Below are positions 6,392-11,920 of a stretch of 12,127 nucleotides of DNA, in pieces (within the stretch, counting starts at the first letter, position 1; every line of letters starts with the position of its first letter). Location of the stretch: IMG/VR virus record IMGVR_UViG_2645727673_000001, one strand, 5' to 3'. The DNA comes from a virus. Its lineage: Duplodnaviria > Heunggongvirae > Uroviricota > Caudoviricetes. A program made the translations under genes and the position numbers. A model generated the notes under the pieces. The model did not search any database and was not told where the DNA came from. It saw nothing but the letters and a program-made list of their open reading frames with translations.

Positions 6392-6760
6392 TCATCCTGT
6401 TAACCTGCGGCGCTGACAGCCACCGTATTTGATACGAAACGCGCAGACTTCACCGGAGTCGAACAACTGAACCAGTTTTTTCTGCCCGCTGTCACCCGGA
6501 CGCCAGGCCAGCGTCGCCGAAGTATCACCGACGGATTTCTGCCCCTGGGTTGTCGTTTTCCAGTCTGCATCTTCATCATCGAGATAAGTGTCATCTTCTG
6601 CATCAGCGGTCATTTCGCCAGGTTGCAGATCCTTCACCATCGCAAGACGCAGCCAGTCAGTGTCCGATAAAGGGTTCGCAAACGCATCGCCCTTGCCGGT
6701 GTACATCCAGAACGTCGTTCCCGCACCTTTCGTTTTTGCCAGTGGATTTGGTGTGGTCAT
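6392..6760 (-). CDS. V: Major tail tube protein V homologue, short form (122 aa): N-terminal domain only, possibly truncated
   Basis: [86 protein letters not shown] aligns with the first ~110 residues of lambda gpV. After FRIKY the sequence diverges ([10 protein letters not shown]) and stops. AAGGAGGT ribosome-binding site 4-5 nt upstream of the ATG at 6758-6760. Confidence 0.8.
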
Positions 6761-7758: not shown

Positions 7759-8034
7759 TTACTCAATAAAGATCATTGGCTTACCGTTAAAGCGTTCATG
7801 CCGTGTGACCGTCCATTGTTGTCCGTCATAAACAACGCGATCCCCGCGCCGTGGGCGGTATCCCGAAGAAAACACCACCAGAGATACCGCAGGTCCGGAC
7901 AGAGCATTCAGCTCTGCCAGTGTTTCTCCCGGGATCACAGTCATATCGACATCATTAATCGAGGCTGTCTTTCCCATCTTTCTGACCGTGATCGCATCCA
8001 TACGCGCTGCCAGCCGGGAAAAGGGATCAGACAT
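7759..8034 (-). CDS. Small head-tail joining protein occupying the lambda FII position (not lambda FII-like in sequence)
   Basis: 91-aa ORF with ATG start, tightly packed between the DUF2190-like gene and Z. Function assigned from position and size; the sequence does not resemble lambda FII as I recall it. I believe homologues are often annotated as head-tail joining protein, or misleadingly as ATP-binding sugar transporter-like protein. Confidence 0.6.
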   Translation of the reverse strand: MSDPFSRLAARMDAITVRKMGKTASINDVDMTVIPGETLAELNALSGPAVSLVVFSSGYRPRRGDRVVYDGQQWTVTRHERFNGKPMIFIE

Positions 8035-8350
8035 TGAGTTTTACCGGCACTTCTTCTGCACTGGTTCCGGCATCTGCCCAGACAACCCCGACCAGCGGAT
8101 CAGAGCCGCTGTTAGTCAGCTGAACTTTTCCGGACTTCAGATAAACCTTCTTACCCGTTTTCATGTCATCCGTTTTCAGCTTAGGCAGCATAAACACACC
8201 TTCGGTCAGGCCGTCGCCTGTTTCACCCTGTGGAATATCGGTCAGTGCCACCGCAAAAACATCACCCACCTGCACCAGATCTCCGCTGCTGATGGCTGCA
8301 CTGGCAACAATCGCCACCGTTTTTCCTTCTTCTACAAAATTCTTTGCCAT
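8027..8350 (-). CDS. DUF2190-like small head protein (putative decoration/cement protein)
   Basis: 107-aa product MAKNFVEEGKTVAIV...VQVGDVFAVAL...GETGDGLTEGVFMLPK...GKKVYL fits the pattern I associate with DUF2190 proteins encoded just after major capsid genes. GGAGA 5 nt upstream of the ATG at 8348-8350; the track start at 8395 lies inside the upstream terminator and is rejected. Confidence 0.6.
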   Translation of the reverse strand: MAKNFVEEGKTVAIVASAAISSGDLVQVGDVFAVALTDIPQGETGDGLTEGVFMLPKLKTDDMKTGKKVYLKSGKVQLTNSGSDPLVGVVWADAGTSAEEVPVKLNV

Positions 8351-8363
8351 AACTGTCTCCGCA

Positions 8364-8382
8364 CAGCCCCGTTCAGGGGCTG
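8364..8382 (-). other. Stable hairpin upstream of the DUF2190-like gene start (possible RNA stability/processing or pause element)
   Basis: Perfect 7-bp inverted repeat CAGCCCC / GGGGCTG with a 5-nt loop, 13 nt upstream of the start codon, with no following U-tract. Confidence 0.3.
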
Positions 8383-8393
8383 ATTTCAGGTAC

Positions 8394-8413
8394 AAAAAAA
8401 GCCCTTACGGGCC
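8394..8413 (-). terminator. Terminator-like hairpin just downstream of the capsid gene
   Basis: Minus strand reads GGCCCGTAAGGGCT followed by TTTTTTT (plus-strand A-run 8394-8400). Short GC stem with a GTAA tetraloop, about 25 nt after the capsid stop codon at 8437-8439. Confidence 0.45.
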
Positions 8414-8436: not shown

Positions 8437-10467
8437 TTACGCCGTACATTTCACCAGACCGCGGTGATCAACTGGCGCGACACCGGCGTCAATACGCACT
8501 TTCGTTGTCACGCCATCCACACTGAAGCCCTCCATCTGATCAATATATGGCGTATCCACACCGTTGAGATAAGCCACTTCAATAGTATCGGAGCCTTTTG
8601 ACGCAGCCAGGTAGAAGGTGGTCTGGCTGTTATCATCAAGACGAGGCTCTGCAATAACGGTCGCAAAATCTTTCACCGGGTTAATAATACCGGCGTTAAT
8701 GTCAGCCCCCTTGACACTTGAGGAGCGAATGACCTGGTTAGCAACAGACTCCATCGCCGTCGGTACCAGTACGAACGCAGGACGAATATTCAGATGACGC
8801 TCCCCCTCTTTCTGAACGCGCATCAACTGGCGGGCTTTATCCAGCGATGCCACGTCCATTGCAGCGCTCTCCAGTACGTTTGCATGTTTTGCTTTATCGA
8901 ACAGACTTACATTATCTGTGGAGATTTTCGGGTTAGACGTCAGAATGGCATAAACCAGATCGGCAATAGTGGATTTCGCCGCACGGCCCAGTTTCATCGG
9001 GACATCGGTCAGCATATTCAGATCATCATTGATAATGGCCTGACGGGTGATACTGAACAGCTCGCCATAGGTCGCCAGTGCAATAGTGGCCTGTTTATCT
9101 CCGGTGGTGACGTATTTATATTCCGCCCCTTCACGCACCTGACGCAGAGCACTGAAGCCCCCCATACCCACACGATGGGCAATTTTAAAATCAGACAACT
9201 GACCTTTCCGCGTCCACTGTTCATAGGTTTCAGGGGCATCTTCCCAGCCCTGCAGAATGGCTTTGTTCGCAACATCCAGCAGAATATTACCGAAGTCAGA
9301 CGTACTGTGTGTGAACGCCGCACCGACCATCTGCATCGGGTTATAACTGGAAACCCCAATACCCCGTTCAGTCAGTGACATACGGGCATATTCACGCAGG
9401 GTCATCCCGTTGTAGACATTATCACGTTCGGTTTTTTCAAATCCGGCACGCGCCATCAGCGCCTGGCGGATCCCGTCCCCCACAAAATTACCGTTACCGG
9501 CATAAATATGAGCCGGGGTATTTTTATTGGATGGCGTGGACTCGCGCCCCATCTCGTTCAACAGCTTTTCGCGGGCCTGCTCCAGCGAACATTCAGGATC
9601 GGCAAGACACTGAGCCTGCAGCGTCTGATAACGCCCGCCAAACATGGCAAACAGATCATTAATACCGTTTACACGCGCTTTTTGCTCTGCCAGTACCTGC
9701 GCACGGATACTGTTTTCATCCACCACGGGTGCTGCTGCCTGCACTGGCGTCCGGGAGGCTGCAGGTTCATCATCCTGTACGCGTGGAGCACTGTTGCGTG
9801 GCGGAGTAATCATGTTTCGAATGGATTCCGGCATCTTTTTAAATTCCTCTGTACGTTTTGACTGAATACATGCCATTGCCTTAACGGCTGGCGTCACCTG
9901 ATCAGCAAATCCCTGTGCCAGACATTCGGCACCGGACATCCAGGTCTCATCCGCCAGCATGGCAGCAATTTCATCGGTGGTTTTCCCGGTTTTCTGTGCA
10001 TAAGCGGGTAACAGAACCGCCGCCTCAACTTTATCGAGCAGGTCGGCATAGGTGCGCATGTCCTCCGCATCACCGCCCGTAAAGCCAAATGGTTTATGAA
10101 TCATCATGAAGGAGTTTTCCGGCATAATGACCGGGTTTCCCACCATCGCAATGACCGACGCCATTGACGCCGCCACACCGTCGACATAAACGGTAATGGA
10201 CGCACCATGTGTTTTCAGTGCATTAAAAATGGCGATGCCTTCAAAGACATCGCCACCCGGTGAATTAATATGGAGATTAATGTGGGTGATATCGCCCAGT
10301 GCATTCAGATCACTGATAAACTGCTTCGCCGTAACACCCCAGAAACCAATCTCGTCATAAATATAAATATCCGCGTCACTCTGGTGACCTGCCTGCATCC
10401 TGAACCAGGAATTATTCTTCGGACTGGTCGTCGGTGTACTGCGGCTACTGTCGTTTCGTTGCGGCAC
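8437..10467 (-). CDS. Prohead protease (ClpP/S14-type) fused in one ORF to the major capsid protein
   Basis: The N-terminal region carries ClpP signature motifs INSPGG, GVAASMAS (catalytic Ser) and MMIHKPFG (catalytic His), close to E. coli ClpP INSPGG / QAASMGA / MIHQPLGG. A linker follows, then about 400 aa that I interpret as an HK97-fold major capsid domain from position and size. Start proposed at the GTG at 10465-10467, with AAAGGAGG 5 nt upstream, overlapping the portal 3' end by 23 nt. Alternatives are the ATG at 10398 (weak ribosome-binding site, would remove the conserved SWF segment) and the TTG at 10659. Confidence 0.85.
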   Translation of the reverse strand: MPQRNDSSRSTPTTSPKNNSWFRMQAGHQSDADIYIYDEIGFWGVTAKQFISDLNALGDITHINLHINSPGGDVFEGIAIFNALKTHGASITVYVDGVAASMASVIAMVGNPVIMPENSFMMIHKPFGFTGGDAEDMRTYADLLDKVEAAVLLPAYAQKTGKTTDEIAAMLADETWMSGAECLAQGFADQVTPAVKAMACIQSKRTEEFKKMPESIRNMITPPRNSAPRVQDDEPAASRTPVQAAAPVVDENSIRAQVLAEQKARVNGINDLFAMFGGRYQTLQAQCLADPECSLEQAREKLLNEMGRESTPSNKNTPAHIYAGNGNFVGDGIRQALMARAGFEKTERDNVYNGMTLREYARMSLTERGIGVSSYNPMQMVGAAFTHSTSDFGNILLDVANKAILQGWEDAPETYEQWTRKGQLSDFKIAHRVGMGGFSALRQVREGAEYKYVTTGDKQATIALATYGELFSITRQAIINDDLNMLTDVPMKLGRAAKSTIADLVYAILTSNPKISTDNVSLFDKAKHANVLESAAMDVASLDKARQLMRVQKEGERHLNIRPAFVLVPTAMESVANQVIRSSSVKGADINAGIINPVKDFATVIAEPRLDDNSQTTFYLAASKGSDTIEVAYLNGVDTPYIDQMEGFSVDGVTTKVRIDAGVAPVDHRGLVKCTA

Positions 10468-11920
10468 TGCTGCCTCCTTTATCACTGGCCGGATCGGTAT
10501 CAAATACCAGGTCCAGCTTGCGGTTTTCATCAATTTCGGCCTTGCGCCGACGTTTGACATCATCCGGATTACGACCACCTGCACGTACCCAGTCTGATTC
10601 TGTCGCCGCTCCACCACGAATCTGGATTTTCCAGGCCTCAGCCTCCTTAACAGGGTCAATCCACGGCATCACCGGTCCGGAATACACCGCGGTATACAGT
10701 GAAGAACGGTCAAGATCGCGGGGTAGCCTGATAACACCGGATGCCACAGCCTGTTTCAGCCAGGCACGATACATCGGGCGGGTGACGGCACCAATAAACC
10801 AGTCCTGCAGGATCAGGTAGCCATCAGTGGATTCAACCAGCTCCTGACGCTGGGCGCTGTAAGTGCCGTTATAGTTGCGCGCTGTACTGGAAAAACTCAG
10901 ACGACTGCCCGCCGCCACGGCACGCAACTGAGCATTACGAAAAGTTTCAAGGTTAGGATTTGGGCGATCCGACTTCACCATTCCGATTTCTTCGCCGGGT
11001 TTCAGATCGTCGTAAATAATGCCTGGCTGAATGGTAAGCTCGCGTTCATTCTCCTTGCTGTCATTACCATCCGTTTCATAGCTCTGTCCGTCGCCTTTGC
11101 GGATGTACATCCCCAGAGCAGCGGCGACCCTTGCTGCAGTCAGCTCAGAATCTTCATACTCTTTCAGGGCGCTGAGGCGGATCAGCACACCGGACAATAA
11201 AGACGTCCCGCGCATCTGGTGCAGACGGCGAACAAATTTAAGATGCAGCATTCGCTCTGCATCCACTTCTTTGGTTTCCATCTGCCGTCCGGATACAGGA
11301 CGACTTTTATACACCAGATATTTTTCGGGACGCCCCCAGTCATCAACAAACACGCCCTGATTCAGCCTGTTGCTCTCATCACTGGTCATGGGAATAAAGT
11401 CCGGCTCGAGCGCCTCCAGCCAGAAATGAACACCGGCAGAAGGCGTCAGGCTGTTTATGCGCCCGGAAACCATCTGGGCAAACACCTCACCATCGCGCAG
11501 CCAGGTACGCAGCATCAGACGTTCCAGCATCGGACGGGTAAACTGCCCGGTGACCTCCGGACTGACAGACCATTCACTCCATCGGGTACGTATCTCCGCT
11601 GCCAGATCACGGGCAATGGCCCCATTGCGTAATACCGGATGTGGCTCGACAATAATCCCGTTTTTCCCCACCACCCGTTCTTCCAGCTTGTCAAATACAC
11701 CAATGACCAGATCGTGGTTGTTATCAAGGTAACGGGCCTGCTCACGTAACGACACGGCCCCGTACTGGCTTAACTGGTCGGCAGTTCGGTTCTCCCGTCG
11801 GGCTTTGTGTGTCCGCGTCGTTTTTACGGCCTCATAAGCCTGGATCACCGCACGGGAACGCAGCCTTGCCGCTTTCCATCCTGGTGAAAAAACGCCAATC
11901 ACATCATCAAGAATTGCCAT
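10445..11920 (-). CDS. Portal protein
   Basis: 491-aa ORF from MAILDDVIG, immediately after the gpW-like gene and before the protease/capsid gene. Its ATG overlaps the W-like stop (TGATG), with GAGG 5 nt upstream. Size and position are typical of a portal; family (lambda B-type versus other) not resolved by eye. Confidence 0.85.
   Translation of the reverse strand: MAILDDVIGVFSPGWKAARLRSRAVIQAYEAVKTTRTHKARRENRTADQLSQYGAVSLREQARYLDNNHDLVIGVFDKLEERVVGKNGIIVEPHPVLRNGAIARDLAAEIRTRWSEWSVSPEVTGQFTRPMLERLMLRTWLRDGEVFAQMVSGRINSLTPSAGVHFWLEALEPDFIPMTSDESNRLNQGVFVDDWGRPEKYLVYKSRPVSGRQMETKEVDAERMLHLKFVRRLHQMRGTSLLSGVLIRLSALKEYEDSELTAARVAAALGMYIRKGDGQSYETDGNDSKENERELTIQPGIIYDDLKPGEEIGMVKSDRPNPNLETFRNAQLRAVAAGSRLSFSSTARNYNGTYSAQRQELVESTDGYLILQDWFIGAVTRPMYRAWLKQAVASGVIRLPRDLDRSSLYTAVYSGPVMPWIDPVKEAEAWKIQIRGGAATESDWVRAGGRNPDDVKRRRKAEIDENRKLDLVFDTDPASDKGGSSAATKRQ

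Follow-up and report, generated by a model that had tools for sequence, protein, structure and literature searches.

Within the window, by which we mean the whole 12,127-nt stretch of DNA that was analysed, a complete coding sequence (8437..10467) encodes a ClpP-like prohead protease, a scaffold-like linker and a major capsid protein as one polyprotein of 676 amino acids, followed by a TAA stop at 8439-8437. This gene and every other feature located below lie on the minus strand. Translation from the GTG at 10467 runs through 676 codons without an internal stop, inside an open frame that spans 8437..10659 in the ORF table of the window. The preliminary description of this DNA had read the protease and the capsid protein as a single polypeptide, and both domains are indeed found in this one unbroken frame. 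Upstream lies a portal gene of the lambda family (10445..11920; Pfam PF05136, E 2.3e-82; TIGR01539, 458.6 bits) and downstream a head-decoration (cement) gene (8027..8350; Pfam PF09956, E 3.6e-20; PHROG 122 'head decoration'), the PGAP coordinates of both being transferred from the related locus L003. Just past the stop codon of the fusion gene, before the decoration gene, a terminator scan finds two hairpins (8364..8413; RNA fold -35.3 kcal/mol, z -2.26). Hairpin 1 (8413-8394) reads GGCCC-GUAA-GGGC followed by U7 and is terminator-like; hairpin 2 (8382-8364) reads CAGCCCC-UGAAC-GGGGCUG. The record of phage mEp213 has a rho-independent terminator annotated at the same place.

The order of the genes is portal, fusion, decoration and head-tail connectors. 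The fusion gene sits in a head module, flanked by portal, decoration, Gifsy-2/FII-like and gpZ matches, and its relatives show the same order. The protein is a member of the NCBIfam family NF045540 (scaf_prot_MCP1), 'ClpP-like prohead protease/major capsid protein fusion protein': its score is 979.7 bits with a cutoff of 475, and the alignment pairs aa 32-675 with positions 2-651 of the 652 in the profile. PHROG 133 matches the protein end to end. At the nucleotide level the gene is more than 99% identical to those of phages phi458 and cdtI and 98.7% identical to that of mEp460, and the sixteen closest phage records, these three included, range from 98.6 to 99.4%. PGAP gives this CDS the same product name and start in an E. 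coli prophage with 99.9% identity. The protease-linker-capsid fusion gene is an ordinary prophage gene that is already catalogued. Its layout already has a name and a description and so is no discovery. With a published account, a curated family model, a standard RefSeq name and relatives in the thousands in databases, the fusion finding has nothing new to add.

The capsid domain, the linker and a candidate internal start

The capsid-sized C-terminal part that had been noticed in the frame of the protease is an HK97-fold major capsid protein domain (aa ~328-676; 8440..9486), so that the polyprotein has the C-terminal half of an NF045540 member. Pfam Phage_capsid_4 covers aa 376-673 of it with an E value of 4.3e-55. 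The Pfam Mu-like gpT model (PF10124; E 4.1e-8) also scores above its gathering cutoff (33.4 versus 20.1 bits), with an alignment limited to aa 536-608, and PF25209 fits the domain better than PF10124. By sequence, the closest solved capsid relatives are of the Mu gpT type (PDB 8rkc and 8rkx; PF10124; E 2.5e-4), which are stand-alone proteins of ~300 aa whose protease and scaffold come from other genes.

The linker (aa ~201-327) is part disordered and part helical in an AlphaFold model based on a 67-sequence alignment with 42-99% identity. An earlier model from 23 sequences that were 75-99% identical had a mean pLDDT of 35.5; its alignment was shallow and it was discarded. A Pro/Ala/Thr/Gln-rich hypervariable stretch (aa 222-250; 9718..9804) is disordered (pLDDT <50) and differs in length and sequence among relatives. 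It is followed by a conserved three-helix scaffold-like module (aa 251-308; 9544..9717; helices 251-274, 281-289 and 295-308; pLDDT ~70-89), which shows weak collinearity with the Nu3/scaffold portion of lambda gpC (E 1e-4 and a probability of 57% in hhalign). A second disordered stretch (aa 310-325; 9493..9540; pLDDT <50) lies directly before the capsid domain and ends in a conserved AGNGN motif, with A323-N327 invariant within the close subfamily. This second stretch is most likely the zone in which the maturation cut would fall.

At the boundary between protease and linker lies a junction element with a candidate internal translation start (9832..9861) that consists of an AAA, a GAGGA and an ATG. 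The AAA codes for Lys204 (9858-9856), the GAGGA (9849-9845) begins with the GAG codon of Glu207 (9849-9847), and the ATG codes for Met212 (9834-9832) and is followed by Pro213. Met212 is found in 76 of 78 relatives and Pro213 in 77, down to 43% identity. An AGGA is present 7-10 nt upstream of Met212 in all but two of 52 representatives, both from Aeromonas (L072 and L085), one of which has ATT in place of the ATG while the other retains the ATG. The AGGA/GAGGA is kept though the residues encoded by it vary (EE, ED, QE, KD, KE). The third base of codon 207 is G in 98% of the sequences, the highest value among 43 comparable columns; Lys204 AAA and Glu207 GAG are two of the three frozen codons among 410 columns, and the synonymous variation of the junction window is the lowest in the gene. 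The mRNA within 30 nt on either side of the Met212 ATG has a median at the 2.4th percentile of structure, that is, at the least-structured end, and in 45 of 51 representatives it ranks within the least-structured decile. No similar signal was seen at eleven control positions, whose medians were 0.27-0.86. For the model NF045541 and for PHROG 4523, homology sets in at aa 210-221, which points to a module boundary there.

These properties are consistent with a gene that, in addition to the polyprotein, makes a 465-residue protease-free scaffold-capsid protein from Met212, a possibility that we take seriously while rating it somewhat below an even chance. The full-length form would then account for a share of the subunits and for all of the protease. 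The shorter product would resemble an HK97 capsid protein whose delta domain is long, and it would be a counterpart of lambda Nu3, which is nested in frame in C and offers a precedent. A more specific version is more tentative still: in the enterobacterial, Pseudomonas and Shewanella branch there may be two nested genes, with AAA..GAGGA..ATG (9858-9832) driving the Met212 product and the ratio of the two starts setting the number of protease copies per prohead, a lambda C/Nu3 strategy extended to the capsid protein.

Several observations weigh against an internal start. Distant fused relatives (30-50% identity) have Ile, Val, Ala or Thr at position 212 and, near it, only Phe209 and Pro213 persist. 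The conservation is therefore partly that of a protein motif, and an internal start cannot be family-wide. The Shine-Dalgarno-like motif is modest (about -6 kcal/mol), and the A/U richness could stem from a peptide rich in Lys, Glu, Phe, Asn and Ile. The start of lambda Nu3 was rejected as a positional homologue of Met212, since hhalign places Nu3 Met239 opposite aa ~152-156, inside the protease domain. Apparent stand-alone scaffold-capsid proteins of 410-480 aa, several with a Met-Pro N-terminus, were considered as well. All four that were checked lie 15-103 nt from a contig end, and in the two whose upstream sequence was read the frame is open to that end. Because they stop at contig edges, these proteins are truncations and give no evidence for an unfused gene. 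The analysis nonetheless suggests the Met212 site as the only lead beyond the known layout. If the start is real, these phages would tune the protease:capsid ratio by translation, and many public annotations, those of most E. coli genomes included, would miss a product.

The start codon inside the portal gene

The GTG start codon (10465..10467) is preceded by the Shine-Dalgarno sequence AAAGGAGG (10473..10480), read directly 5 nt upstream with the spacer CAGCA. It pairs with the 16S 3' end at -11.6 kcal/mol, and the motif is conserved in related loci. As the portal stop TAG is at 10447-10445, the portal and fusion genes overlap by 23 nt. The homologous start has the strongest Shine-Dalgarno in 62 of 65 related loci (41 GTG, 20 ATG and 1 TTG), and 60 of these 62 starts fall within the portal ORF, at its 3' end; PGAP agrees, annotating the homologous GTG in E. 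coli WAT. A start at this place had been thought probable beforehand, and the GTG at 10467-10465 is now the best-supported one.

Public records differ on the start of this gene: the RefSeq record of cdtI uses the Met24 ATG and that of phage Tritos a site further upstream.

A start at the Met24 ATG (10398-10396), downstream of the portal gene, would give 653 residues and no overlap (652 residues in cdtI, which is without an extra Ala codon). In its favour, ATG outranks GTG as a start codon, a RefSeq record uses this one, the NF045540 alignment begins only at aa 32, and in two Providencia loci this ATG has the best Shine-Dalgarno and lies past the portal stop. We nevertheless consider this start improbable. 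Its Shine-Dalgarno is weak, -2.2 kcal/mol here and a median of -2.8 kcal/mol in relatives, in contrast with that of the GTG. Of 78 relatives, 22 have Ile, Leu or some other residue at position 24, among them those from Pseudomonas, Shewanella and Sodalis, and two more have a gap there. Furthermore, Trp21 is kept in 73 of the 78, which indicates that codons upstream of Met24 are translated. For annotation, the value of the comparison is that it settles the disagreement among public records in favour of the portal-overlapping GTG.

The protease domain and the integrity of the fusion

The N-terminal part is a ClpP-fold serine protease domain (aa ~20-200; 9868..10410). Pfam CLP_protease covers aa 31-192 with an E value of 7.8e-35, which, together with the Phage_capsid_4 match, provides the profile evidence on both halves that had been proposed as a check; chance can in no way account for either match. 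The three motifs read earlier, INSPGG, AASMAS and MIHKP, are all present in the translation, within HINSPGGDV, GVAASMASV (with Ser101, 10167-10165) and MMIHKPFG (with His124, 10098-10096). Ser101 and His124 are essentially invariant (77/78 and 78/78 relatives, respectively), giving the protein the catalytic Ser and His of an N-terminal NF045540 protease, and Glu174 (9948-9946) occupies the site of the catalytic Asp of ClpP. The model for the cellular ATP-dependent ClpP (TIGR00493) reaches 56 bits against a cutoff of 308.6, and all ClpP equivalog and subfamily models score the fusion protein far below their cutoffs. Judged by its sequence, the domain has the ClpP fold but is no cellular ClpP. 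Nor does the fusion protein belong by sequence to S49/SppA, the lambda gpC/Nu3 type; NF045542 classes the domain as a head maturation protease.

A Glu in the third position of the triad, where cellular ClpP has Asp, and the failure of every cellular ClpP equivalog cutoff could be taken to mean that the domain is a dead enzyme that serves only as an internal scaffold, with maturation carried out by another protease. This is very unlikely, as the invariant or nearly invariant Ser101 and His124 lie within canonical ClpP motifs, the head module has no other protease gene in the window or in annotated relatives, and the NF045542 class is that of a maturation enzyme.

The fusion is conserved well beyond this locus. 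Its relatives comprise 79 loci from other genomes with 43-99% identity, found in Enterobacterales, Pseudomonas, Shewanella, Aeromonas, Salinicola and Pasteurella. Matches extend from the first ~21 query residues through the C-terminus in 73 of them, the other six being N-terminally partial. A search with the linker and capsid half alone finds 10,624 cluster representatives (E <= 1e-3), and among the best 150 of these a length of 620-790 aa predominates. The damage elsewhere in this prophage and the plainly erroneous chimeras held in databases, such as 1159-aa portal-protease-capsid ORFs, might favour an artefact in which a recent mutation or an error in sequencing fused separate protease and capsid genes, but this reading, hardly credible, is already refuted by conservation in relatives, given the same unbroken frame in the 79 loci over several bacterial orders and in sequenced, plaque-forming phages, a length typical among thousands of representatives, and a curated NCBIfam model that covers the fusion. 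The sequencing error or unnoticed frameshift named at the outset as a way for the single gene to fail is thereby ruled out. The 1159-aa proteins were also considered as products of programmed frameshifting and rejected: the switch point differs in each (P0005, P0006, P0012 and P0043), which indicates errors or decay.

Proposed head maturation and comparison with known systems

We regard it as highly probable that the gene serves head assembly in a lambda-like E. coli prophage of the mEp460/cdtI/phi458 type, that it starts at GTG-10467 and that its product is a polyprotein which would mature itself. Under the strong AAAGGAGG site in the last portal codons, the frame that begins with the GTG gives a 676-residue polyprotein made up of a ClpP-fold protease, a linker with two disordered stretches and a three-helix module, and a Mu gpT-related HK97-fold capsid protein. 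The steps that follow are modelled on how the heads of HK97, lambda and Mu mature. Around the portal, the capsid domains would build a prohead with its protease and scaffold parts turned to the interior, where crowding would activate the protease. The protease would then cut within the disordered stretches, the likeliest place being near aa 310-327, and the N-terminal two-fifths would be digested. A capsid subunit of roughly 350 residues would be left to expand and bind the decoration protein. Autoproteolytic release of the capsid protein can reasonably be inferred from the family; where the cuts fall and what becomes of the N-terminal part are guesses. For cleavage sites and virion proteomics of the fusion family, the literature searched yielded only the bioinformatic description of phage MD8 and actinobacteriophage genome notes, and no N-terminal sequence, virion mass spectrometry or protease mutant was found there for this gene or its close relatives. 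The tail-tube gene (gene V) of this prophage has a frameshifting deletion, so the copy in the window may never build a virion.

The head genes of lambda (B, C, Nu3, D, E) share the same order and logic. The preliminary description had set the locus apart from lambda. For the fusion the contrast holds: the lambda capsid gene E is separate and follows D, and gpE is not cut from a polyprotein. For the start it does not, as lambda C also begins with a GTG, after GAGGAGG and 20 nt inside the portal gene B. The lambda gpC protease is of the same ClpP/SppA fold clan, and aa 40-326 here are weakly collinear with gpC 105-426; it is an S49 protease, whereas the domain here is S14-like. HK97 encodes its gp4 protease, a member of another family, in a gene of its own, and the protease is present in far fewer copies than gp5, whereas here each full-length subunit would carry a protease. 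An always-attached protease would amount to about 400 proteases per shell.

The same protease-capsid fusion idea is seen in the actinobacteriophage 'major capsid and protease fusion protein' and in NF045541 (scaf_prot_MCP2). The window's protein scores 399.9 bits over aa 221-673 against the NF045541 cutoff of 525 and is not a member; the PHROG 4523 match starts at aa 210. The N-terminal ~175 positions of the NF045541 profile (~190 of PHROG 4523) have no match to the protease region here.

The gp5 of Pseudomonas phage MD8 was described bioinformatically in 2021 as one gene of ~690 aa for protease, scaffold and capsid protein (PMC8508860). Pseudomonas phage vB_Pae_CF145a has a protein that is 56% identical over 97% of the length, with a GGAGG-N5-ATG start inside its portal gene. 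Both are more divergent and have no Met at the position of Met24. The phages of NF045540 (mEp460, cdtI, phi458, Ayreon, Tritos and mEp213) encode the same protein end to end with the same portal and decoration neighbours, the mEp213 protein being 73% identical to that of the window. The differences from these phages are at the allele level only: the gene here has an extra Ala codon (GCG GCG, 10023-10018), and the portal gene that overlaps it ends 16 codons earlier than that of cdtI.

One reading frame for protease, linker and capsid

On the minus strand a single frame is open across 8437-10659, and translation from the GTG at 10467-10465 gives 676 residues with no internal stop before the TAA at 8439-8437. 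The preliminary description had proposed that 8437-10467 encodes head protease and major capsid protein as one polypeptide. The uninterrupted frame bears this out, and the INSPGG, AASMAS and MIHKP motifs on which it drew were all located in the translation (HINSPGGDV, GVAASMASV and MMIHKPFG). Profile searches on the two halves, which it had called for, identified both: a Clp protease domain at aa 31-192 (Pfam, E 7.8e-35) and Phage_capsid_4 at aa 376-673 (E 4.3e-55). The Mu-like gpT family of Pfam was also matched, more weakly, and PHROG 133 was matched end to end. NCBIfam NF045540, the [quoted passage not shown], scored 979.7 bits over aa 32-675 against a cutoff of 475, and every testable defining feature of that family was found in the gene. 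The protein also passed the cutoff of the domain model NF045542 ("head maturation protease, ClpP-related") and, in the NCBIfam profile search, fell far under every cutoff of the cellular ClpP models. The protein belongs neither to the cellular ClpPs nor to the S49 gpC type, and it falls outside NF045541, a second protease/major capsid fusion family.

An AlphaFold model from an alignment of 67 sequences (42-99% identity; mean pLDDT 76.9) has a disordered N-terminus (aa 1-19), a confident alpha/beta domain (aa 20-200), short helices (aa 204-220), a disordered Pro/Ala/Thr-rich stretch whose length differs among relatives (aa 222-250), three helices (aa 251-308), a second disordered stretch (aa 310-325) and a large C-terminal domain (aa 328-676). 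All 78 relatives keep His124 and 77 of them keep Ser101; in the column aligned with the ClpP catalytic Asp, where this protein has Glu174, 72 have Glu and 5 have Asp. The ClpP-fold protease is apparently active. One frame between the portal and decoration genes thus holds the protease, a linker made of a helical module between two disordered stretches, and an HK97-fold capsid domain.

By analogy with HK97, lambda and Mu, the capsid domains would build a prohead with the N-terminal parts inside, and the concentrated protease would cut the disordered stretches, removing itself and the scaffold and leaving a capsid subunit of ~350 residues. The final cut would most likely fall near aa 310-327, beside a conserved AGNGN motif. 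The literature search retrieved no experimental study of a fusion-family member.

In a helix of the protease domain, a GCG GCG duplication (10018-10023, minus strand) adds one Ala (KVEAAVLL vs KVEAVLL), which accounts for the 676 residues of the protein against 675 in every close relative examined. The extra Ala is probably neutral.

Translation start and portal overlap

The proposed Shine-Dalgarno (SD) sequence, AAAGGAGG, was read directly at 10480-10473 (minus strand), followed by the spacer CAGCA and the GTG, and the portal stop TAG at 10447-10445 leaves an overlap of 23 nt; the signal lies within the end of the portal gene, as had been described. Public records differ in the start they use: GTG in the PGAP annotation of E. 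coli WAT and in the mEp213 record, the ATG of Met24 (10398-10396) in RefSeq cdtI, and a site farther upstream in Tritos. For 65 related loci carrying the anchor motif YDEIG, we compared in-frame starts by their pairing energy with the 3' end of 16S rRNA. The strongest start lies at the homologous position, 33-58 codons upstream of YDEIG, in 62 loci, with a median of -9.3 kcal/mol (-11.6 in the window). These starts comprise 41 GTG, 20 ATG and 1 TTG, and 60 of the 62 fall within the 3'-terminal part of the portal ORF. SD pairing is weak for the Met24 ATG (median -2.8 kcal/mol). Of 78 relatives, 22 have Ile, Leu or some other residue in place of Met24 and 2 more have a gap there; the upstream residue Trp21 is kept in 73. 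The GTG start at 10467 is therefore well supported, and the comparison settles the conflict in start-codon annotation among public records, which is part of the residual interest of the gene. A difference from lambda in gene layout had also been suggested; it does not extend to the start codon, since lambda C likewise begins with GTG, after GAGGAGG and 20 nt inside portal gene B.

Two Providencia loci (L047 and L049) have their strongest SD at the counterpart of the Met24 ATG, 37-44 nt past the portal stop; this lineage seems to have lost the upstream start that overlaps the portal gene. The portal TAG of the window stands where cdtI reads GAG; the portals of cdtI, mEp213 and 1720a-02 continue past this point to a TAA, for another 16 codons in cdtI. 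The overlap is 71 nt in cdtI and 56 nt, the commonest length among relatives, in mEp213. Because E. coli WAT has the same short portal as the window, the last 16 residues appear dispensable.

Distribution of the fusion

The DNA of the fusion gene is 98.6-99.4% identical to sixteen phage records, phi458, mEp460, cdtI, Tritos and Ayreon among them; the prophages of E. coli WAT and MB06171 match the whole window at 99.9%, and 4485 of 5426 complete E. coli genomes hold something similar to it. A scan of one genome per species gave 79 loci at 43-99% identity in Enterobacterales, Pseudomonas, Shewanella, Aeromonas, Salinicola and Pasteurella. The match runs from the first ~21 residues to the C-terminus in 73 loci; the other six are N-terminally partial. 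With aa 205-676 as sole query, 10,624 cluster representatives were retrieved (E <= 1e-3), the best 150 of which are mostly 620-790 aa long. Full-length loci in such distant relatives, together with these long representatives, indicate that the fusion is an old and widespread architecture and not an error. A sequencing error or split ORF, which the preliminary description had named as fatal to its reading, did not apply, as the fusion recurs across these loci. Since phage records hold ~1600 stand-alone ClpP-type head proteases and only 80 full-length fusions, the fusion is a minority design, though a familiar one.

The finding is correct, carefully read and already known. The 99.9% identical copy in E. 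coli WAT bears the same name at the same coordinates in its PGAP annotation, and genome notes on actinobacteriophages routinely use the label "Major capsid and protease fusion protein". In an hhalign comparison, residues 1-326 can be aligned, weakly but collinearly, to lambda gpC across its protease and scaffold parts (probability 57%, E 1e-4). A single gene for protease, scaffold and capsid protein was published in 2021 for Pseudomonas phage MD8, and the HHpred result reported for MD8 gp5 agrees with this gpC-like alignment (PMC8508860).

More than ten database ORFs of 1135-1159 aa (P0005-P0017, P0043, P0044) join portal, protease and capsid in one frame. Programmed frameshifting was rejected for these, since the switch position differs in each one examined, which marks them as sequencing errors or decayed prophages. 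Four "short" representatives of 468-480 aa (L087-L090) were looked up, and in each case a contig end lies 15-103 nt from where the protein begins. Breaks within the fusion gene seem to be frequent in metagenome and short-read assemblies, perhaps because several co-resident prophages have the conserved protease half in common.

A candidate internal start at Met212

In lambda, Nu3 is nested in gene C. Met212 (codon 9834-9832) could similarly be an internal start for a 465-residue protease-free scaffold-capsid protein, a reading that we consider plausible but somewhat less likely than not; it forms another part of the residual interest. In its favour, the Met212-Pro213 pair lies at the protease/linker boundary, with Met in 76 and Pro in 77 of 78 relatives, and aa 210-221 is also a module boundary because homology to NF045541 and PHROG 4523 begins there. 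Of 52 representatives of <90% identity, 50 have AGGA or GAGGA 7-10 nt upstream of the ATG; the exceptions are the Aeromonas loci L072 and L085, one of which has ATT for ATG while the other keeps ATG. The motif is retained though the encoded residues vary (EE, ED, QE, KD, KE). The final G of codon 207 is present in 98% of sequences, the top of 43 comparable Glu/Lys/Gln columns, and of 410 degenerate columns only three use one codon throughout, Lys204 AAA and Glu207 GAG being two of these. Synonymous variation reaches its minimum for the gene in the nine-codon windows centred on aa 203-208 (0.49-0.60; mean 0.89, sd 0.06). The mRNA within 30 nt on either side of the ATG ranks, by median, among the 2.4% of windows with the least structure, and 45 of 51 representatives place it in the least-structured decile; for eleven control positions, other conserved Met codons included, the medians were 0.27-0.86. 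However, relatives at 30-50% identity have Ile, Val, Ala or Thr at position 212, and of the residues around it Phe209 and Pro213 alone are retained. The strength of the SD-like motif is modest, peptide composition could explain the A/U richness nearby, all four of the apparently stand-alone scaffold-capsid proteins looked up in the databases are contig-end truncations, and Nu3 of lambda starts at a position that is not aligned with Met212.

Lys204 AAA (9856-9858, minus strand), present in all 48 representatives with Lys there, lies 8 codons upstream of Met212 and outside GAGGA. It may be an A-rich initiation enhancer or part of another RNA signal.

Neighbouring features

Between the fusion and decoration genes, at 8364-8413 (minus strand), two hairpins sit in the middle of the late operon, the first terminator-like and followed by U7, the second GC-rich; a rho-independent terminator is annotated at the same spot in the mEp213 record. 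The hairpins may act as an attenuator or mRNA stabiliser that raises the capsid-gene message relative to downstream genes. The major tail (tube) gene V (~6392-6760, minus strand) carries a 383-nt frameshifting deletion, with its junction at 6426/6427, relative to the E. coli WAT and MB06171 prophages (99.9% identical). Of its 247 residues only the first 112 are retained, and 10 codons read out of frame come after them; this prophage copy probably cannot build a tail. The eight best-matching E. coli genomes among the matches listed align in two pieces over ~12.5 kb, and the deletion is absent from all of them.
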